Part shown: positions 3,790 to 55,215 of the stretch, one piece after another
Numbering within the stretch: position 1 is the first letter of the stretch
Layout of the letters: each line of letters starts with the position of its first letter
Sequence record: MK165087.1
Length of the DNA: 59,550 nucleotides
Reading direction: 5' to 3' (one strand)
Origin: Escherichia phage BRET
Program-made: the position numbers and the translations under genes
Notes under the pieces: generated by a model
The model's database searches: none
What the model was told of the DNA's origin: nothing
Seen by the model: only the letters and a program-made list of their open reading frames with translations

Positions 3790-4668
3790 ATGAACAAATA
3801 TCACATTCATCTAGCGGTAGCTTATTCCGCTGGCTTCTTCCAGTCCATGCCTCGTTTTGGTGCATTGGAACTTGAATATACTTCTGAGGATGAAATCCCG
3901 GAAAACGCGCGTGAGTATTATTCCCAAGAAGGCGATAAGTGGATCCTCACTGGTGTAAAGGGTGGTGGCAAACAGAATATTGACAGGCTGCAATCCGCAC
4001 TTGAAAAAGAGCGCAACGATCATAAGGCGGTCAAGAGTAAGTTAAGTAAGCTGAACGGACGTGATATTGACGAACTCTTGCAGCGCGACGCTGAATATGA
4101 AGAGCTTAAACTACGTGCGGATAAAGTTGATGATGAAAAGCTGGAGCAGATCATTAACGTGCGCATCCGTAACAAGCTAACTCCGCTTGAGCGTGAACGT
4201 GACGAGCTGAAAAACAAACTTTCTACCTATGAGAAGCAAGTAGAAGAGCTGACCACAAAAGAGAAGAACCGCATCGTTAAGACCGCTCTCAGCAAGGCTG
4301 CAATGTCTGCTAAAGTGATCACGGAAGCTATTGACGACGTGGAACTGATTGGCTCTCGTTTGTTCGAGCTCACCGAAGACGGTCAGGTTGTTACCCGCGA
4401 CGGCGTTGGTGTAACCCCGGGCATCACTCCAGAAATGTGGTTACAGGACATTCAGGATAAGAAACCTCACTGGTTCCCTGGAAACGTTGGCGGGGGTGCT
4501 GGTGGCTCCCGTACTCCTGGCGCGGCTGGTAAGAACCCGTGGAGTGCTGAGGGTTGGAACCTTACTGAACAGGGTAAAATTCTTCGTGAAAATCCTGAAA
4601 AAGCAGGCCGTCTGGCAGCCATGGCTGGCGTGGACTTGAAGCGTCCAGTACGTCCAGTTAAAAAATAA
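3790..4668 (+). CDS. putative scaffolding protein
   Basis: Charged coiled-coil-like protein with Gly-rich basic C-terminus between portal and capsid; alternative starts at 3763 (GTG) and 3778. Confidence 0.55.
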   Translation: MNKYHIHLAVAYSAGFFQSMPRFGALELEYTSEDEIPENAREYYSQEGDKWILTGVKGGGKQNIDRLQSALEKERNDHKAVKSKLSKLNGRDIDELLQRDAEYEELKLRADKVDDEKLEQIINVRIRNKLTPLERERDELKNKLSTYEKQVEELTTKEKNRIVKTALSKAAMSAKVITEAIDDVELIGSRLFELTEDGQVVTRDGVGVTPGITPEMWLQDIQDKKPHWFPGNVGGGAGGSRTPGAAGKNPWSAEGWNLTEQGKILRENPEKAGRLAAMAGVDLKRPVRPVKK

Positions 4669-4806
4669 TAAAATTTGTTGACACTCCCTCCGGTTGGTGC
4701 TAGTTTTACATCAACCGGAGCACGGGCTCCGATCAATCAAGGATTATTGGAGCCTCCCACGGCGGTAGAGTTCCAAAGTAAATCGATTAACTTTGCGGAG
4801 ACTACC

Positions 4807-5910
4807 ATGTCTAAAATTCTGTCAGCTCCGATGCTTAATTTGCGAGCTACCAATTCAATTCTTCTGTCTGCTGTTCGTCGTGGTGCGATCACTGAACTTG
4901 CAGATGTTATCGTTCCAGAGATCTTCGTACCGTATGTGCAGAACCGCACTACTGAAAAGTCCCGACTGATTCAGTCTGGTGCTATTGAGATTTCTGAGCG
5001 TCTTAACGCTGCATTGATGGGTGAAGGTACTACCTTTAACCAGCGTTTCTTCAAAGACCTGGATCGTGATGAAGAAAACGTTTCCAGCGCAAGCGATTCA
5101 ACCGATTCTACTCCTGGCGGTATCAAATCTGGTCGTGAAATTCAGGTCCGTCTGTCTCGTAACCATTCATGGGGTTCTGCGGACCTGCTGGACAGCCTGA
5201 TCTCTCCTGACCCGCTGGATGCTATCATTAATCTGGTGGCAAGCTACCGTCAGAGTCGTCTGCAACGCGCATTCGTTGCGACTGTGAGTGGTGTGTTTGC
5301 TATGAACGCCGCTGCTCCGGTTAGTTCCGGTGATAAGAAGTCTACCCACGTTCAGAACGATATGACCCACGATATCTCTGGTTCATCCTTCACCGATGGT
5401 GTGACTAACTTCAACCCGGCGGGTGTTATTCTGGCTGCTGGTACTATGGGTGACTCCCTGAACGAGCTGTCCATGATGATGGTACACAGTGTGGTCTACC
5501 AGCGTATGCAGCTTATGAACCTGATCGACTTCATCCCGGATGCTCGTGCTGAAGTAATGATCCCGACCTACATGGGCCGTGAAGTTATCGTTGACGATAT
5601 GATGCCTCACGATAGCGGTAAGTACGAAACCTGGCTGGTTGGCCGTGGTGCATTCCAGTTGGGTGTTGGTTCACCGAAAGTTCCTGTTGAAACTGAACGT
5701 AAACCTGCATCCTACAAAGGTGGTGGTTCTGAAATCCTGTTCCACCGCTGGGAAAACATCATTCACCCTGTCGGTCACGCATGGGTTGGTACTGCTGCTG
5801 AAGGTGGTCCGGATAACGCCGCTCTGAAGACTGCTACCAACTGGGCTCGTGTATTCCCTGAGCGTAAACAGATTAAGATTGCTCGCCTGGTCACTCGCGA
5901 ACACGCTTAA
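4807..5910 (+). CDS. major capsid protein
   Basis: About 367 aa from internal ATG with GGAG RBS (track ORF begins 4675 on a TTG); position after scaffold; strong terminator follows. Confidence 0.7.
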   Translation: MSKILSAPMLNLRATNSILLSAVRRGAITELADVIVPEIFVPYVQNRTTEKSRLIQSGAIEISERLNAALMGEGTTFNQRFFKDLDRDEENVSSASDSTDSTPGGIKSGREIQVRLSRNHSWGSADLLDSLISPDPLDAIINLVASYRQSRLQRAFVATVSGVFAMNAAAPVSSGDKKSTHVQNDMTHDISGSSFTDGVTNFNPAGVILAAGTMGDSLNELSMMMVHSVVYQRMQLMNLIDFIPDARAEVMIPTYMGREVIVDDMMPHDSGKYETWLVGRGAFQLGVGSPKVPVETERKPASYKGGGSEILFHRWENIIHPVGHAWVGTAAEGGPDNAALKTATNWARVFPERKQIKIARLVTREHA

Positions 5911-24304: not shown

Positions 24305-26278
24305 TTAAGCGGCGTATGCGAGTTTTTCCAGCAATTTTTCCGCTTTAGCTATGTACACTTCGTGGTTGAGATCCGGCGGCAATTGATCGGTGAGTTCCAT
24401 CATGGGTTTACCCCCTGCTGTCTTACCGACACGACCACCACTCTTGACTATCAGTATTTCAGGTACTTCCTCTTTTGTATAATACCAACGAACAACTTTA
24501 CCTAGTGGCTCGCTATTCCATGCAGCGCCACCGTTAGCTGTCTTAATACAAACAAACTTACGAATGTCCTGACACTCTGTGATAGTTTTAGCAATTGGTG
24601 TGCCGTCACGGAGGAGATTAACCACAGCATCCATAATGATCTCACCTTCCGCGTTCTTAGCAAGGCCAGTCTCTGCGAACCAACCTTTACGCTTGGCTTT
24701 ACCATCCGCCTTAATTGCGACGTAGTTGTTAACGTTTGCAGAGTTAAGACGCAGGTACTGGTTCAGTTCCATTTCAAAGCCAGTTGTCTCTTCCCACCAC
24801 TTGATGATATCAGTCATTAATTGCTTCTTAGCTTTGCAAGGTTTAATAACGATACCATCTGTGTTAGCACTAACGACCTGGATACCATTAAGCTCCAGTG
24901 TTTCAATGAGCATAAGTAGAGCTAACTGACCTGTGAGCGTAGTCTGGATAATAAGGTGTGGTGCATACAGGATAGAGAACGGTGAACCGAACTTACCATA
25001 GGAACCGTTGATAACGATCTTAAGAGTTTGTGCGGTCTTATCGTCATGAGCCATCTTAGCTGCAATACGTCGTTCTACGATCTTAACGAAGATATCTATA
25101 AAGCGTGGGCCCAGGTGTTCAGGATACAGTTGCTGGTTAATGATACAGATTGGGTAGTACGATGTTACGTCAGCATCCCACATCTCTTCATCTTCAGACG
25201 GTACAATCTCCATTAACTCTTCGCACGAGTGCAGACCACCGATGCCCATGTTGTAAGTTGTCTGGTTGATTGTAAACTTCAAAGAGTTCATTGTAGATGG
25301 TTGCTTAATTTTACCATCTTCTGCAACTCGGAAGTAACTGTCAAGCACCACCTGAAATACCGACTTCATTAGTGGCGTTTGGAAACCTAACCACACTGGA
25401 GGATTGTATCTAAAGGTTCTACCGACTTCCACCATACCCTTCTGTGGCACGAAGCCCAGCATTTCCTTCATCTCATGACGAATTACAGCTTCTGCAATCT
25501 GTGCGTCAGATTTAGAGCGAAGGTCTACTTTATACTCTTCACTCATAATCTCACGTAGATGGATCTGCTCTTCCAGCGAGTTAAACAGAGCCATTGTTGT
25601 ATCAAGGTCGTTAATACAGTAGAAGCGCACAATAGCAATCTGTTCTATGGACAGCGCCCAATGCGGTGGGAACGGTAAGTCCTGGAGCTTCTGCATGTGC
25701 ATACGGCCACCGTACAGCTTCAGTGAACCGAAGCCAGGAGCTACTTCTTGAACGTCAATGTGGTCAATCCAAAACTGTTTCACACCAAAACTGTTAAGAA
25801 CGTCCCACGGAGCCCACTCTTCCTGGATCATCCTGTCACTTGCTTCTTTCAACTTGTCGACAGTCAGTCCAGCAATGGCAAGGAATGACATCGTGTTATC
25901 GTAGTTTCTTGAGTTGAAACCAACGGTACGAAAGTTCTTCATTATCCATTCGTACTTTTCCGTGTCAAGTGTCTGACCAGCAGTCATTTCTAGATAATAA
26001 ACCTTACCGAACTTAACCCCTTTGAACGCCACAAGAAAATAGTTCTTATAGCATTCAATATCGTATACGAACGTTTCTTGTGCAAAATACATCTCCACTA
26101 ACTCACCGTCTGTCATACGCGGATCGTTAGCTGCAAAACGCATTGCTGCATCAAGACCTGGAAGGTAGTCCGGACGCTCCCATACCATTTCAACTGGTTG
26201 ACGTTTTACTTTCTGTTTCTTCTCTTTCTTAGCGGGAGGTAAATCCTCCCAAAAGAAACCAATAGCATCTTTTCTCAT
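24305..26278 (-). CDS. DNA polymerase (family A-like, with 3'-5' exonuclease motif)
   Basis: YDIECY (exo I-like), RRIAAK...NGSYGKFG (motif B-like), NTDG. Confidence 0.7.
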   Translation of the reverse strand: MRKDAIGFFWEDLPPAKKEKKQKVKRQPVEMVWERPDYLPGLDAAMRFAANDPRMTDGELVEMYFAQETFVYDIECYKNYFLVAFKGVKFGKVYYLEMTAGQTLDTEKYEWIMKNFRTVGFNSRNYDNTMSFLAIAGLTVDKLKEASDRMIQEEWAPWDVLNSFGVKQFWIDHIDVQEVAPGFGSLKLYGGRMHMQKLQDLPFPPHWALSIEQIAIVRFYCINDLDTTMALFNSLEEQIHLREIMSEEYKVDLRSKSDAQIAEAVIRHEMKEMLGFVPQKGMVEVGRTFRYNPPVWLGFQTPLMKSVFQVVLDSYFRVAEDGKIKQPSTMNSLKFTINQTTYNMGIGGLHSCEELMEIVPSEDEEMWDADVTSYYPICIINQQLYPEHLGPRFIDIFVKIVERRIAAKMAHDDKTAQTLKIVINGSYGKFGSPFSILYAPHLIIQTTLTGQLALLMLIETLELNGIQVVSANTDGIVIKPCKAKKQLMTDIIKWWEETTGFEMELNQYLRLNSANVNNYVAIKADGKAKRKGWFAETGLAKNAEGEIIMDAVVNLLRDGTPIAKTITECQDIRKFVCIKTANGGAAWNSEPLGKVVRWYYTKEEVPEILIVKSGGRVGKTAGGKPMMELTDQLPPDLNHEVYIAKAEKLLEKLAYAA

Positions 26279-28229: not shown

Positions 28230-28298
28230 TGTTCACCTAACAAATAAGCGCCCGTAGGCGCTTATTATATTAAAGATAATGTATGATTCGCAAATCAG

Positions 28299-50543: not shown

Positions 50544-51164
50544 TTACGCTCCAAACTGATCAATGTATTCAATGAGCTCTTGCAATTCTTGCTGTAACTG
50601 CACATTACCACTATTATTCGTCTGAAGTCTAACGAGGCGCTCCTTGATATGTGCAATGTGGTTAGCACCCATCCGACGCTTCTGTACATCGCACCAGTGA
50701 ACAATACCGTCTTCAATATACGCACGACGCGCTTTACCACGCGGATATCGCAACGGCCGAACTTCACACTTATCGCCCACCCACTTAAAGCCCAGGATCA
50801 TAACAGCGTTGCCTTCCGTATCAGGACACACGTCAAAGCAACTGTTGAACCCTTTACTGTGCATGTACTTGTCAAGCGGAATCACACAATCCACATCTAA
50901 CAACCAGTACCCGAAGTAAATGTCAACAGTAAACATCATCCCCAACATCGGAGCCGCCCAGCACATGTACATCCGCCCGTCATCCAACTTCTTGACCGCA
51001 TTCGGCCTCAACACGAGGCCAGCCGCCTTCCACGCTTTGACCACATTGCTTATACTGTCTTTGTGCTGTTCTAATATGGTTACCGCTTTGGCATACATTT
51101 GTTCGTCGTAACCGAACATTTCCTGTACGTGTGCGTGCGTTATTTCAATATTACGATTGCGCAT
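50544..51164 (-). CDS. hypothetical protein (first gene of a leftward operon)
   Basis: 206-aa ORF with GGTGAGG RBS; sits just downstream of the AT-rich repeat region. Confidence 0.45.
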   Translation of the reverse strand: MRNRNIEITHAHVQEMFGYDEQMYAKAVTILEQHKDSISNVVKAWKAAGLVLRPNAVKKLDDGRMYMCWAAPMLGMMFTVDIYFGYWLLDVDCVIPLDKYMHSKGFNSCFDVCPDTEGNAVMILGFKWVGDKCEVRPLRYPRGKARRAYIEDGIVHWCDVQKRRMGANHIAHIKERLVRLQTNNSGNVQLQQELQELIEYIDQFGA

Positions 51165-51227
51165 AACCTCACCCTTGACTAAATAAAATCGATTGATTTT
51201 GAAATTCAGTTGCCAAGTTTTAATTTA

Positions 51228-51374
51228 TGCAAAGTTTTTGCTATTTGCAATTGTGATGTTTTGCGGTGTTTGTATGTGCAAAGTTTTTGCGTTTGCAAAA
51301 AATTACAACAGTCTGAAGGTGAGAAATTGCAAATTTATAAAGATCGGTGAAAAAATGCACAATTTATAAAGATT
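51228..51374. repeat. dyad-symmetric repeated elements in AT-rich non-coding region
   Basis: Two copies of TGCAAAGTTTTTGC(t/g)(a/t)TTTGCAA about 49 bp apart, plus two copies of (T)GCA(A/C)AATTTATAAAGAT about 30 bp apart. Confidence 0.4.
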
Positions 51375-51854
51375 CAGCAACATACGAAACCGCGAAGCGA
51401 AGTGTATGAAAAATAAGGGAAAATTTCGAGGATTGGGGGGTTTGTATGGATTTATATTATTTATAAAGGGGTCTCGTGGGGGTCGTCAGTAGACAACTCA
51501 AAAATAAAAAATCTTTATAAAATTTATATAAATACACACATACACACACTTTTACCTTATTTTTCATGCACTTACCCCCTTTCATTTCGTACATTAGGCG
51601 ACAATATACGAGCAATATAAGAAATATTTGTTGCGCAACGACTGTGTGTTTTCTAACCAATCGAAAGATTGCTTTATATACGTCCGCGCGTCTAACACAA
51701 AAGAAAAGTAGATTGCAAGCGATTTTTGCTGAGGTAACTCTCGAAGTGAAAGCGATTCGCGAGTTTGAAATTTTGTAGCCCGAAAACGATTCTATTTTAT
51801 GGTATAAATGCCGGATTTTTCGGGCAAAGCCGGCTTTTCGGTGAGGTTGGGTGG

Positions 51855-52030
51855 CTGGGATCGGGGTAGCGAGTCGCCCATAAGGCGAAAATAGCCGCGA
51901 AAACGGGGCACACAGCGCGATTAAACGGTTGGATCGGTGTAAGGGTGGCGGTGAGGGGCGAAAATGCCGCAAAATCGCGTACAGGGAAGCAGGGAGTGGA
52001 TCGCTGTAAGGGCGTGTAAGGCGACTGAAT
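51855..52030. repeat. GC-rich degenerate tandem repeat with GATC cores
   Basis: Three units starting GGATCG(G/C)(G/T)GTA(A/G) spaced about 70 bp apart; two are followed 26 nt later by GGCGAAAAT(a)GCCGC. Confidence 0.4.
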
Positions 52031-52142
52031 TGGAGTCAATGGTAATGTACGGAAGAGGGATTCAGGTTCTTAGAGCGCGAATGGTGGAGTTATGGGTGAG
52101 GAATATGTGGTCAGCAGGGTAACGCGGGAGGTGGTGCGGGTA

Positions 52143-52181
52143 CAAAAACGAAAACGCCCCGTTGGACTTCAACAGGGCGCG
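52143..52181 (-). terminator. rho-independent terminator (minus strand)
   Basis: On the minus strand GCGCCCTGTTG-aagtc-CAACGGGGCG followed by TTTTCGTTTTT, just downstream of the gene ending at 52204. Confidence 0.5.
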
Positions 52182-52203
52182 GATTATATAATGCAGTTAG
52201 AAG

Positions 52204-52452
52204 TTATTTACTAGTTAATAGTACCGCCCAGGTATTATCTGGAAGCGTACCAACTCCGAGTATCTTAAGCTGAAGCGACTGGTTCTGCATATTGTAGTTG
52301 TCCAGTAGCTCCTGGGCCGCGGCAGCGGCGTTCGCTTCACCGTTGAGGTTGTAGTCGTTACTCGTTACCGCGCACATACCGAGACCGACAGCTTTAAAGC
52401 GCATACCTTTCGTCTGAGTCGGTGCTAGTGCTTTGACATGGATAGCGTTCAT
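52204..52452 (-). CDS. hypothetical protein (small early paralog family A)
   Basis: 82-aa ORF; sequence-related to 52983..53237. Confidence 0.45.
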   Translation of the reverse strand: MNAIHVKALAPTQTKGMRFKAVGLGMCAVTSNDYNLNGEANAAAAAQELLDNYNMQNQSLQLKILGVGTLPDNTWAVLLTSK

Positions 52453-52481
52453 ATTATTTATCTCCGTTACAATTTGAAAGG

Positions 52482-52739
52482 TTAGCAGTTTTTTAACAGG
52501 TTAATGAAGCCCACCAGCGTGGACGCGGTTGCAACCAGGCGGCCCATAGTATGCAGTTCCGCGTAAACTTTACCGTCGTTGAACACCGTTAAATAAACGT
52601 TAAGACCATTGCAACGGACGCGATATTTGCGCGCGTTATTATTAAAAGTTTCCAATTCCGCAGTGATAGTTGCAAGGTTGACTATACGTTTTTCAATAAT
52701 GCGACGAGTGATCATGGACTGGTTTAATACTGTAGACAT
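52482..52739 (-). CDS. hypothetical protein (small early paralog family B)
   Basis: 85-aa ORF; N-terminal SMITRRIIEKR shared with 54356..54661. Confidence 0.45.
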   Translation of the reverse strand: MSTVLNQSMITRRIIEKRIVNLATITAELETFNNNARKYRVRCNGLNVYLTVFNDGKVYAELHTMGRLVATASTLVGFINLLKNC

Positions 52740-52807
52740 AATAATTTCCTCTGTTAATTATGCGAAGTGCATATTATTGCCCACTGTTACTATGGGCAAT
52801 GTATATG

Positions 52808-52972
52808 TCACTCAGCGGACACATATTCTAACGCTTCTGATAGTGTAGCGAAGTGACCATCACTCACCAGATTAATAGCGTACTCAAGTTGATCGCGGGT
52901 CAGGTTGCGAAACTTGTTGCGGATGTGATAGCAACGACCGCGATAAATAACCTGGAAATAGTTGCGTTCCAT
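52808..52972 (-). CDS. hypothetical small protein
   Basis: Internal ATG of track ORF 52808..53050, placed to avoid overlap with the upstream gene. Confidence 0.3.
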   Translation of the reverse strand: MERNYFQVIYRGRCYHIRNKFRNLTRDQLEYAINLVSDGHFATLSEALEYVSAE

Positions 52973-52982
52973 AATTATCCCC

Positions 52983-53237
52983 TTATGCAACGATGAACGC
53001 GTAACCACTTTGATCCGGGAGCTCACCACCAGCGAGAATCTCAAATTCAACGCCCGCTTTAGCGTTAAACTTATTGATCAGCTCCTCCGCTGCGGCGCGA
53101 TGGTTGCCGTAAACGCCCAGATCGTCACGCCATGTGATAGTTACAGAACCGTTCCAGCCCGTTGCTTTTACGCGCGGAGCGCGAGCGGCAGTTGGGTTCA
53201 CGAATTTGGTAATAATAGCTTGAGCCATGATAGTCAC
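52983..53237 (-). CDS. hypothetical protein (small early paralog family A)
   Basis: 84-aa ORF; shares PT...R.KA.G / AAA.EL / ILG.G.LPD pattern with 52204..52452. Confidence 0.45.
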   Translation of the reverse strand: MTIMAQAIITKFVNPTAARAPRVKATGWNGSVTITWRDDLGVYGNHRAAAEELINKFNAKAGVEFEILAGGELPDQSGYAFIVA

Positions 53238-53263
53238 TCCTTAAATTATGTTAACGTTAATAT

Positions 53264-53539
53264 TCACTCAGCGCGAAGGCCCATCGGGTGAATAGTTTGC
53301 TTCTGAAATTCAGCATACGCTTCAGCGATCAGCTTGTCCCAGTATTCTTTAACTTCCGGATAGTTACTGGAAGTGAATACTACACCATTCCGAGTGTGGA
53401 TCTCGTACTGGCAGCACGTTTCCTCTTCGGTCCACAGATCAAACTCGTGGCGGTGGTACAGGTAGAAGGACTGACGGTTCAACACAACTCGAGCCATTTC
53501 AACGAAAGAATTCTGGTTAGGTTTACGCATGATAATCAC
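53264..53539 (-). CDS. hypothetical protein
   Basis: 91-aa ORF. Confidence 0.4.
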   Translation of the reverse strand: MIIMRKPNQNSFVEMARVVLNRQSFYLYHRHEFDLWTEEETCCQYEIHTRNGVVFTSSNYPEVKEYWDKLIAEAYAEFQKQTIHPMGLRAE

Positions 53540-53721
53540 TCCGGTAAAATTACAGTCACGTTAATATTTGCAATGCGAGCGCACTCGGTGAAACCTTTTA
53601 CATAAGCATCCATTTCGTCATAGGATGCGAAAGTCACGTCCGGGACTGGTCCGTTGTTAATATTCACGCAATATTCGTGTTCGTCCAGGTCAACCCAACA
53701 AGTTAGAACGATAGTTTCCAT
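53536..53721 (-). CDS. hypothetical small protein
   Basis: Internal ATG (METIVLTCW...) of track ORF 53536..53754. Confidence 0.35.
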   Translation of the reverse strand: METIVLTCWVDLDEHEYCVNINNGPVPDVTFASYDEMDAYVKGFTECARIANINVTVILPE

Positions 53722-53799
53722 ATTATTTACCCTCCGTATAATACAGACCCGCAACTATTGGAGCACCGAATACCAAGAACGCTAATAAGTAGAACATAA

Positions 53800-54294
53800 T
53801 TAATTGCCCCCTTTATTGTTGAGCCCGTGGAATTTGCGCCATGCGTAGAATTCAATCGTTGCGTTATTAATATTCCAACTATTAGCTTTCGCAAGGTCAC
53901 GGACGTTACCAATAGTTGGCACACCATTAGGCAACATATTATCCAGAGCGTTCCAAACGTCTGCACATTTACCTTTAATTGGGCGACGGACCCCGTTGCG
54001 CGTTTCGCTGCGCGTTTTACCTTTGACGGGAGCGACCGGAGCTGGTTGTGTGGTCACTTCCACGACAGTTGCTTTATCAGCTTCTACCAGATCGTTAGCT
54101 GCCTTATTAACCGCGCTTTCGCTGTACCAGTAGCGGCCACCGTCTTCGTGCGGTTCCTGGTGAATAAAGCTATTAGCTGTCGCAGTGTCCACATCCAGAA
54201 CCTTTTTTAAGGCACGGCGAGCGTTAGACATAGTGGCGAAGAAGCGAGCGTCTTTTGCTACGCGAGTGATAGTTGCCATTGTGATTATCTCCAT
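53800..54294 (-). CDS. hypothetical protein
   Basis: About 160-aa ORF; start may be 54279. Confidence 0.4.
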   Translation of the reverse strand: MEIITMATITRVAKDARFFATMSNARRALKKVLDVDTATANSFIHQEPHEDGGRYWYSESAVNKAANDLVEADKATVVEVTTQPAPVAPVKGKTRSETRNGVRRPIKGKCADVWNALDNMLPNGVPTIGNVRDLAKANSWNINNATIEFYAWRKFHGLNNKGGN

Positions 54295-54355
54295 GTTGAT
54301 CTAGCGGATTGCTAGTGGGAGCCCACTGTAACAATGGGCAACCATTAACACGCTA

Positions 54356-54661
54356 TTATTGTTGAATAGCCTTAGCTATCATTGCAATAAAGCAGAACAC
54401 AGACCAAAGGCTATTCGCTTGACATACTGGTCGACCGTACATTACGCTATAAGAGCTGACAGTGCCGTTCTCGTTAATGCGAATATATAACGCGGTGCTG
54501 GAATACTTTTCGTTTCCCGGGAGCATTACTAAATACTCGTCGTAATCCCAGTCCCCGTTGACTTTTTCCGCAGTAAGGCCCAGCTGATACAGGCGCTTGC
54601 CAATAATACGTTTGGTGATCATGGACTGGGACATAGAACGCGGTAAGTAGATAATGGACAT
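54356..54661 (-). CDS. hypothetical protein (small early paralog family B)
   Basis: 101-aa ORF with AAGGGAGA RBS; N-terminal SMITKRIIGKR. Confidence 0.45.
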   Translation of the reverse strand: MSIIYLPRSMSQSMITKRIIGKRLYQLGLTAEKVNGDWDYDEYLVMLPGNEKYSSTALYIRINENGTVSSYSVMYGRPVCQANSLWSVFCFIAMIAKAIQQ

Positions 54662-54846
54662 AATGCAATCTCCCTTCGGGTGAAGCGGGCGCGGAACCCG
54701 TGTCCCGCTTTAAAACCCCCTTTACCCCACGCGTTTATAATATGACAGCAGGGTATCAGATGCAACTATTATCTGCATTATTTTAGAACTTTTTTAGTTG
54801 TGTTTCATAATAATAACATCCGGGACTATACGGTAGATGGTGTGCC

Positions 54847-54915
54847 GGAAATACCAGGTGGCGCGAGTGTGCTGAAAATACCAGGTAACAGCACGCGCAG
54901 GAAATACCAGGTAGC
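54847..54915. repeat. iteron-like direct repeats (3 x AAATACCAGGT at 26-bp period)
   Basis: Copies at about 54850, 54876 and 54902 in the intergenic region between divergent operons. Confidence 0.5.
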
Positions 54916-55215
54916 ACATACATAGACAGCACATAGTGGGCAGGTGGATAGTAACAGATGTAATTATACTGGACGGTATAGTATAGTCATGTAATAGATA
55001 ACATACTAATCAAATAAAAAATAATAACGCGTGCAACAATAAACAACGTTACAATAGAGCGCGCGACAGTCACATGACGTAACAATCACCTCACTGACGA
55101 TCACGGGACGTTATAGTAACGCCGCGGGGCGGCTCTTAGATCTCTGCCAAGGATTCATCTTTTGTAGATTATCTCGTCACTAGACACTTTATATCCCCAC
55201 CTCACCTGCCCTATA

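Follow-up and report, generated by a model that had tools for sequence, protein, structure and literature searches.

The window analysed here, which is the whole 59,550-bp stretch of DNA from Escherichia siphophage BRET and agrees in length, GC content and relatives with the published description of that phage (PMC6357644), carries a gene-free gap between two leftward gene blocks. To the left of the gap, the leftward replication operon starts at the ATG at 51164 with the gene of a 206-amino-acid protein, and further along it come the genes of the primase-helicase and of other replication functions; to its right lie small leftward early genes, from 54661 down to 52204. An earlier note had singled out about 400 bp of AT-rich DNA without a credible open reading frame (ORF), placed upstream of a leftward operon and containing repeated dyad-symmetric elements, and had read them as an operator and promoter cluster or as part of a replication origin. 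The base composition (GC 33-36% over 51250-51750), the position and the lack of a credible ORF in 51165-51560 all hold, although the gene-free gap is larger than described and the repeat cluster forms its left 40%. The analysis presented below indicates that this cluster probably combines two adjacent elements: a promoter/operator region serving the replication operon, and next to it the place where a direct terminal repeat (DTR) has its left edge.

Nonagvirus genomes, among them that of Enterobacteria phage JenK1, match the window at about 94% identity. The comparison set comprised about 20 relatives, with a core alignment of 13 genomes that includes 12 GenBank relatives; more divergent relatives (contigs numbered with the letter L) were gathered through the 206-amino-acid protein. 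The same gap is present in all 12 GenBank relatives, whose annotators leave it empty or call differing small ORFs in it, and its layout is also found in a distant Klebsiella phage. Over the 13 genomes the gap has a per-site identity of about 0.9, equal to that of the flanking genes or better, and the repeat cluster, about 90-95% identical in the 12 GenBank relatives, is real, clustered far beyond chance and conserved. Scattered one-base indels among the relatives mark the gap as non-coding: a coding gap is ruled out by these frame-breaking changes and by the inconsistency of the ORF calls between annotators, and in phage 9g a stop at codon 3 interrupts 51964-52122, the sole ORF of the gap with a ribosome-binding site in front of it. 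DnaA boxes, integration host factor (IHF) sites and Chi were not found in the gap (TTWTNCACA and WATCAANNNNTTR are absent from 51165-52203), and an Rfam 15 scan of 50900-52500 gave chance-level matches only, the best having E = 0.18 and 0.97, far under the gathering scores. A T4-type late promoter motif, TATAAATA, occurs at 51527 and 55241 and was dismissed because it shows no genome-wide enrichment (6 sites versus 3.5 expected).

Table. Features in and around the gene-free gap of the BRET window (a slash marks a cut position; a dot means no strand).
Feature	Coordinates	Strand	Remarks
Gene-free gap	51165-52203	.	1,040 bp, between two leftward gene blocks; from the ORF list
Invariant 19-nt block	51196-51214	-	in the predicted replication-operon 5' leader; reads GGCAACTGAATTTCAAAAT on the operon strand
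Leftward sigma-70-like promoter candidate	51222-51250	-	TTGCAA-17-TAAATT; -10 element ends 57 nt before ATG 51164
Dyad copy 1	51228-51249	.	TGCAAAGTTTTTGCTATTTGCA, 22 bp; fills the spacer of the promoter candidate
Dyad copy 2	51277-51297	.	TGCAAAGTTTTTGCGTTTGCA, 21 bp
R1	51332-51344	+	AATTTATAAAGAT
R2	51361-51373	+	AATTTATAAAGAT, 29 bp beyond R1
Imperfect palindrome, 175 bp	51400-51573	.	centre near 51487; R3/R4 inner stem; GT-rich versus CA-rich middle
Most conserved core	51450-51505	.	TTATATTA/TTTATAAAGGGGTCTCGTGGGGGTCGTCAGTAGACAACTCAAAAA; R3, predicted left end, two GGGGTC boxes 11 bp apart
R3, third direct copy	51459-51468	+	ATTTATAAAG; core invariant in 13 genomes
R4, inverted copy	51511-51523	-	ATTTTATAAAGAT on the minus strand; pairs with R3 as palindrome inner stem
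Predicted BRET DTR	51460-55135	.	3,676 bp; from the HdSG1/HdK1 duplications and the 9g right end
Intrinsic terminator	52154-52180	-	closes the leftward early operon; 11-bp stem, 7 G-C pairs, T-run

The right-hand part of the cluster (module B, 51315-51600) is built around the motif TTTATAAAG, and a genome-wide motif search, which the earlier note had suggested, places four of its seven sites inside 190 bp of this module. Two such elements about 30 bp apart had been described; an exact AATTTATAAAGAT pair, the only one in the genome, does start at 51332 and 51361, 29 bp apart, but the copies number four, not two, since R3 and R4 had been missed together with the 175-bp palindrome that they help to form. 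The three direct copies and the inverted one are spaced 29, 97 and 52 bp, with an A-tract between copies. The core of R1 and R2, ATTTATAAAGA, is unchanged in the 13 genomes and in L021-L023, L027, L032 and L033, and R1 is degenerate in L028, the most divergent relative; the core of R4 is mutated in three of the 13 genomes and R4 is lost in L028. Over the more divergent contigs, the module is 90-96% identical, versus 83-89% for the adjacent gene. The palindrome has an outer stem of 19 bp (51400-51418 with 51555-51573), and it folds much better than shuffled sequence does (z = -4.3 to -5.1), on either strand and as DNA or RNA. Strong folding on both strands (z = -4.3 and -5.1) is what a structured RNA of 175 nt, whether a small RNA, a leader or a processing element, would produce; this explanation is nonetheless very improbable, as no Rfam family was matched (the best E value being the 0.18 given above), none of the 48 predicted pairs has a compensatory change, the structure is lost in L028, and the sequence folds equally well as DNA with a symmetry that does not depend on the strand.

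The genome ends reported for relatives of BRET fall exactly in this module. HdSG1 and HdK1 are linear records of 63.6 and 64.1 kb with 100% identical terminal duplications of 3,363 and 3,367 bp, and genome ends were placed from abrupt read ends according to the methods of Korf et al. In window coordinates, the left record end lies at 51460 in HdSG1, whose record begins TTTATAAAGGGG, and at 51463 in HdK1, while both right ends lie at 55135/55136 (...GCGGGGCGGCTC/TTAGATC). BRET is 94-96% identical to the 150 nt at each end of HdSG1 and HdK1, and the segment that spans the right boundary (55100-55149) is conserved even in L028. The unique genome lengths are 60,232 and 60,692, thus 460 bp apart, and the repeat lengths differ by 4 bp, with boundaries homologous within 3 nt; a repeat length that stays constant despite such a difference in genome length argues for sequence-specific cuts and not for headful measurement. 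Independently, another laboratory mapped the physical end of phage 9g by read starts to nt 28,243, and a terminal repeat of unknown size was inferred (PMC4276943); this nucleotide is the same junction as 55135/55136 in the window. Beyond these phages, the literature found on Nonagvirus and Seuratvirus termini consists of the 9g paper and of the DTRs of phage iggy, a large-terminase relative, obtained by Nanopore sequencing (PMC10484667); the record ends of iggy are too distant to compare with BRET, and repeat boundaries are not described in searchable papers.

Because the ends of the relatives map to 51460 and 55135, BRET is expected to share them and to have the predicted repeat listed in the table, which would contain 690 bp of untranslated DNA, the block of small early genes that point leftward, and the region of the early promoter. 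The predicted left end (51460, plus or minus 3) would fall on R3, 27 nt from the palindrome centre, with R1 and R2 99-128 bp outside the repeat and the inverted R4 52 bp inside it, and the most conserved core would reach 45 bp into the repeat. Alternatively, the duplications of HdSG1 and HdK1 could be assembly or library artefacts, in which case packaging would proceed by a pac/headful mechanism from 55135/55136 and nothing special would occur at 51460. A single hot spot in one orientation, as seen in 9g, is the classical pac signature, and the left end lies in a hairpin-prone palindrome, so that, with one 9g hot spot only, an artefactual left end keeps some probability. It is, however, an improbable account of two phages whose left ends agree to 3 nt and whose right ends are identical, whose fully identical duplications differ in length by 4 bp where the genomes differ by 460 bp, and whose ends were set by the authors from abrupt read ends; it would also leave aside an independent break in conservation within 8 bp of the left end.

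This break is found in L028, whose identity to the window is 28-68% to the left of about 51450 and 92-96% across 51450-51499. Its exact run begins at 51452, 8 bp from the reported end, and by our own estimate chance alone would bring a conservation jump that close to the end in about 2% of cases, given a gap of 1,040 bp. L028 retains TTATATTATTTATAAAGGGGTCTCGTGGGG(G)TCGTCAGTAGACAACTCAAAAA and has lost the dyads described below. L032 and L033 differ in having their break at about 51315: identity is 24-68% over the dyad segment (51215-51314) and about 100% for everything from R1 rightward (R1-R4 and the palindrome). The two modules therefore evolve separately, and the differing breaks indicate that module A, which holds the dyads, travels with the replication operon, and that module B, with the TTTATAAAG copies, the palindrome and the end, travels with the terminal repeat. 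Since the TTTATAAAG module is separately conserved and holds the left boundary of the DTR reported for two close relatives, it points to genome-end formation rather than gene regulation. Within it, R1, R2, R4 and the palindrome are missing in L028, so they cannot be essential and are treated as accessory.

These observations also bear on the promoter/operator cluster proposed in the earlier note, here taken as the sole function of the whole 400 bp; the TTTATAAAG copies would then be -10-like elements or regulator sites, and the coincidence with the reported ends would be incidental or artefactual. The sequence TTTATAAA is indeed palindromic, with TATAAA on both strands, weak promoter-like combinations occur at R1 and R2 (scores 5.7), and the region lies directly upstream of the replication operon and downstream of a terminator. 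Against this, R1-R4 stay about 100% identical where the operon and the dyads diverge, with no co-variation between them; the start codon of the replication operon is 300-360 bp away from R3 and R4; no TTTATAAAG-based site comes near the top promoter scores; no regulator was recognised by Pfam among the 10 neighbouring proteins; and the coincidence with the ends is backed by three phages and by the conservation break. An exclusively regulatory function of the whole cluster is thus rather unlikely, and the promoter/operator reading is kept for the dyads, which overlap a promoter candidate and are replaced in position, and is less suited to the TTTATAAAG copies, which belong to a separately conserved module with the left boundary of the relatives' DTR.

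Module A (about 51215-51314) contains the two TGCAAA...TTTGCA dyads that had been reported as 22-bp elements 49 bp apart; both copies, the start-to-start spacing of 49 bp and the length of copy 1 are as reported, and copy 2 is one base shorter. Their common 14-mer, TGCAAAGTTTTTGC, has just these two occurrences in the 59,550 bp, the palindrome GCAAA-N3-TTTGC inside each dyad has no other genomic occurrence, and six of the 59 TGCAAA/TTTGCA hexamers found genome-wide sit in 51228-51333. The dyads lie 60-135 bp upstream of the first replication-operon gene. Because the early operon is closed by the terminator at 52180-52154, which is also annotated in HdSG1, HdK1 and SP8 and belongs to a 58-nt exact run common to BRET and L028, expression of the replication operon must depend on a separate promoter or on antitermination. 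The candidate TTGCAA-17-TAAATT is the top leftward site in the gap, with a weight-matrix score of 8.77 (about the 99.99th percentile genome-wide, on an approximate matrix), and is identical in 10 of the 13 genomes.

The dyads themselves vary among lineages. Dyad 1 is perfect in six of the 13 genomes, has GCGAA in one half-site in four and lies in a rearranged segment in three; in HdSG1-type genomes, this segment shows rearranged TTGCAAT repeats. Dyad 2 retains its GCAAA and TTTGC half-sites in 13/13 genomes, with a variable central spacer, and is gone in L028 and L031-L033. In an alternative lineage, an otherwise unalignable replacement segment carries TTTACA-18-TATAAA 67 nt before the ATG, compared with 57 nt for the BRET site, along with nested dyads of its own, TTACCCTT/AAGGGTAA and TAGTGTAA/TTACACTA. 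The replacement of a promoter-like site and its dyads by different ones in the same position fits a promoter with lineage-specific operators. Downstream of the candidate, the 19-nt block of the predicted leader is an exact run even in L028 and is kept in the alternative lineage. Module A thus fits the promoter/operator region of the leftward replication operon, judging from sequence features, and its dyads are probably bound by a lineage-specific factor. Two more specific likenesses were set aside: a sigma-54-like reading of the 19-nt block (TGGCA-N7-TTTCA on the operon strand), for which the GC of the -12 element is absent and the T of TGGCA is not conserved, and a PurR/LacI-type operator, whose PUR box has a half-site spacing that differs by one base from that of GCAAA-N3-TTTGC. 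The matches of the neighbouring proteins in PHROG are all to families of unknown function, and homologues of the 206-amino-acid protein were found only in Nonagvirus-like phages, none of them annotated, so that an initiator or regulator role is not assignable to it.

The other possibility raised by the earlier note, a replication origin or a part of one, would have the TGCAAA and/or TTTATAAAG elements act as iterons that bind an initiator of the phage, such as the primase-helicase, with the AT-rich stretch as unwinding element and the palindrome as a site of strand opening or primosome loading; such a function would be compatible with a terminus at the same place. It draws on the low GC content given above, on a global minimum of the cumulative GC skew at 51190, the left edge of the repeat cluster, on the adjoining replication genes, on the presence of several short repeats and palindromes and on an iteron-like array of eight 14-15-bp units found in a distant relative elsewhere in the equivalent gap. 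Conversely, 51165-52203 contains no DnaA boxes, the dyads have two copies only, their 49-bp spacing is not a whole number of helical turns, and they are replaced in some lineages. At the skew minimum, a leftward transcription unit of 27 kb begins and the non-coding DNA is G-rich, and these two features account for the minimum without any need for replication. An origin is, on balance, unlikely. The cumulative skew has its maximum at 24394, where two gene blocks converge, and the early genes in the repeat are almost skew-free, although the replication operon, with which they share a strand, is strongly skewed. The distant relative is Klebsiella phage vB_Kpn2-P2 (L030), in which positions 3800-5047 show early genes, a terminator, a 1.25-kb gap and the operon, with entirely different repeat arrays: a tandem array of eight 14-15-bp units (GCTAAC.ATTAG...), especially at 4585-4696, an AT-rich stretch of ACATA repeats, and dispersed and inverted copies of GCCAGCTAA. 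Its array is iteron-like in look and is at the position of BRET 51830-51950.

Taken together, the favoured explanation, which we hold to be fairly probable, is a composite in which a promoter/operator of the replication operon (module A) lies beside the left edge of the DTR (module B), where unique DNA meets the terminal repeat in a Nonagvirus genome. In this composite, a moderate sigma-70-type promoter at 51250-51222 would drive the replication operon downstream of the strong early terminator; the promoter presumably fires, and the dyads that overlap and precede it would be the binding sites of the lineage-specific factor. Terminase or an associated nuclease would act on the sequences of module B, cutting or nicking the concatemer at TTA/TTTATAAAGG. 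As in the classical T7-type model, staggered nicks at 51459/51460 and 55135/55136 followed by strand-displacement synthesis would duplicate the DTR; the resulting virion DNA would be about 63.2 kb long, and its two ends would carry one and the same 3.7-kb sequence. The core at 51450-51505, with R3 and its two GGGGTC boxes one helical turn apart, would be the likely site of recognition and cleavage, and R1, R2, R4 and the palindrome would be accessory, for example as extra binding sites of the small subunit or by DNA bending or extrusion.

Several points weigh against this composite. As regards the ends, BRET was deposited with trimmed contig ends (PMC6357644), and the ends given here are predicted from relatives; the 9g study gave one read-start hot spot, on the 55135 side, and none at the equivalent of 51460 (PMC4276943); the text of Korf et al. 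does not discuss Nonagvirus repeats; and the reported left end falls inside a long palindrome, a context able by itself to stop reads. No significant motif is common to the two DTR boundaries: the shared 11-mers TATATAAATAC and AAATAAAAAAT were considered as a recognition motif and rejected, a match of at least 11 nt being shared in 103 of 500 shuffles. The palindrome is mostly invariant, the alignment fold having given the zero count of compensatory changes already mentioned, and L028 has neither R1, R2 and R4 nor the palindrome (z = -0.34). As regards the promoter, the weight matrix was built on approximate frequencies, and TTGCAA-17-TAAATT agrees with only eight of 12 consensus positions, under the threshold of the consensus scan. 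Lastly, Pfam detected no DNA-binding domain in the 10 neighbouring proteins, with the reservation that its profiles can miss small helix-turn-helix proteins.

DTR ends are an already known kind of genome end, and several known systems offer terms of comparison for the composite. Phage T7 has a 160-bp terminal repeat flanked by short repeat arrays and processed by the terminase gp18/gp19; a hairpin intermediate is said to have been proposed for it by Chung, Nardone and Hinkle in 1990. The relatives of BRET resemble this type in their fixed, sequence-defined ends with an identical repeat at both, and BRET itself in the short repeated motifs and inverted repeat beside the boundary and in a repeat that would be duplicated from a single concatemer copy. 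Unlike that of T7, the BRET repeat is 3.7 kb long and holds a whole early operon, and there is neither a promoter for a phage RNA polymerase nor sequence similarity. Binding repeats of terminase small subunits are exemplified by R1-R3 of lambda cosB, which come with an IHF site, and by the pacL/pacR boxes of SPP1. The 10-13-bp motif of BRET has a similar look, its copies (three direct, one inverted) being scattered across some 190 bp on both sides of the predicted cut, with an A-tract in between, but it lacks an IHF consensus, three of its four copies are dispensable in one lineage (L028), and its binding is putative; in addition, ends of the BRET type would be those of a blunt or near-blunt DTR and not the 12-nt cohesive ends of lambda or the headful cuts of SPP1. 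On the side of module A, the arrangement recalls the middle or delayed-early promoter logic of lambda-like phages, in which an early terminator is followed by a sigma-70-like promoter overlapped by dyads, and the BRET dyads are lineage-specific, like the operators of immunity regions; in contrast to that logic, the BRET promoter is weak by consensus and no repressor or activator gene was identified.

The closest architectural parallel is phage T5, which like BRET has a long DTR with small early genes transcribed inward from the end. In its left terminal repeat, the early genes are followed inward by a conserved 1.2-kb untranslated region of repeats and palindromes (Davison, bioRxiv 10.1101/866236); this region, the untranslated Repeat Region 3/injection stop signal, lies mostly inside the repeat and extends 270 bp into unique DNA. 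The BRET gap, 51165-52203, would likewise overrun the boundary, 744 bp of it falling within the predicted DTR and 295 bp beyond it, and in both T5 and Nonagvirus the untranslated region is better conserved than the neighbouring ORFs and has received HNH genes in some members, here JenP1. On the other hand, T5 has eight paired DnaA boxes where the BRET gap has none, no A1 or A2 homologue was recognised among the BRET DTR proteins (no Pfam match, and PHROG families of unknown function only), the repeats are 10 kb and 3.7 kb long with no sequence similarity, and the likeness of BRET is one of sequence layout. The absence of DnaA boxes and of recognisable A1/A2 homologues makes the parallel an analogy and not a membership.

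Under a further alternative, to which little credence is given, the 1-kb untranslated hub, made up of the repeat cluster and 51600-52150, would be a miniature counterpart of the T5 injection stop, or a variant of it based on a palindrome hairpin or cruciform. In the first form, the DNA would enter from the 55135 end, so that the 3.7-kb repeat with its small takeover genes would be expressed first, and DNA transfer or transcription would pause at the repeat/palindrome block until an early protein releases the pause; in the variant, the 175-bp palindrome across the cut would form a hairpin or cruciform intermediate that drives the duplication of the terminal repeat. If true, a 60-kb siphovirus unrelated to T5 would enter the cell in two steps as T5 does, but with no DnaA boxes, and the parallel in any case makes stepwise DNA entry testable in a much smaller phage.

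For the composite explanation, the boundary of the terminal repeat is more informative about the region than the operator half. Nonagviruses (9g, JenK1, BRET and, from the BASEL set, Bas19 and Bas20) serve as model phages in work on 7-deazaguanine DNA modification and in screens for phage defence; almost all of their database entries omit the terminal repeat and have been permuted arbitrarily. Ends at 51460 and 55135 would give the true virion chromosome, of about 63.2 kb for BRET, would define which DNA end bears the early promoter and would make all the small early genes diploid in the virion. They would also single out 55 bp, compact and invariant, as a candidate packaging site that could serve engineering or packaging in vitro, and the separation of a lineage-specific promoter/operator module from the end-formation module would be useful for studies of the early-to-middle switch.

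The remaining part of the gap, inside the predicted repeat, has features of its own. A hypervariable spacer at 51601-51700, with at least three unrelated alleles among relatives (40-70% identity, a 10-nt deletion and an 8-nt insertion), separates two conserved non-coding modules and has near-invariant flanks. The second of these modules, at 51701-52150, is 88-93% identical even in divergent relatives and includes three units of about 70 bp, each opening with GGATCG(G/C)(G/T)GTA and containing GCGAAAA. It is G-rich on the plus strand (GC skew +0.34 to +0.38), so that a leftward transcript would be C-rich; a zone of Rho-dependent termination or antitermination, an origin or a part of a T5-like stop region are possibilities for it. 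A structured RNA at 51700-51978 was rejected, as the alignment fold gave one compensatory pair and no support. In JenP1 (L012, 2106-2579; about 51979-52200 of the window), an HNH homing endonuclease gene lies in the hub on the opposite strand; another HNH gene lies just beyond the right repeat boundary in HdK1 (L014, 3536-4015), and an HNH_3 gene follows the gene of the 206-amino-acid protein in L028.

Within the predicted repeat, the small early genes of 52204-54661 include paralogous pairs, with proteins of 82 and 84 amino acids assigned to phrog_3199 and of 85 and 101 amino acids assigned to phrog_13865, both families of unknown function; each virion DNA would hold these pairs in two copies. 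Among the early leftward promoter-like sites, the best one, ATGACT-16-TATAAT (54963-54990, minus strand), is only about 150 bp inside the right repeat end, which places the end of the repeat between divergent early promoters and the first rightward gene (55418). The strongest promoter-like site of the gap, TGGACT-18-TATAAT (52163-52192, plus strand), points rightward and overlaps the early terminator, and it would yield RNA antisense to the early genes.

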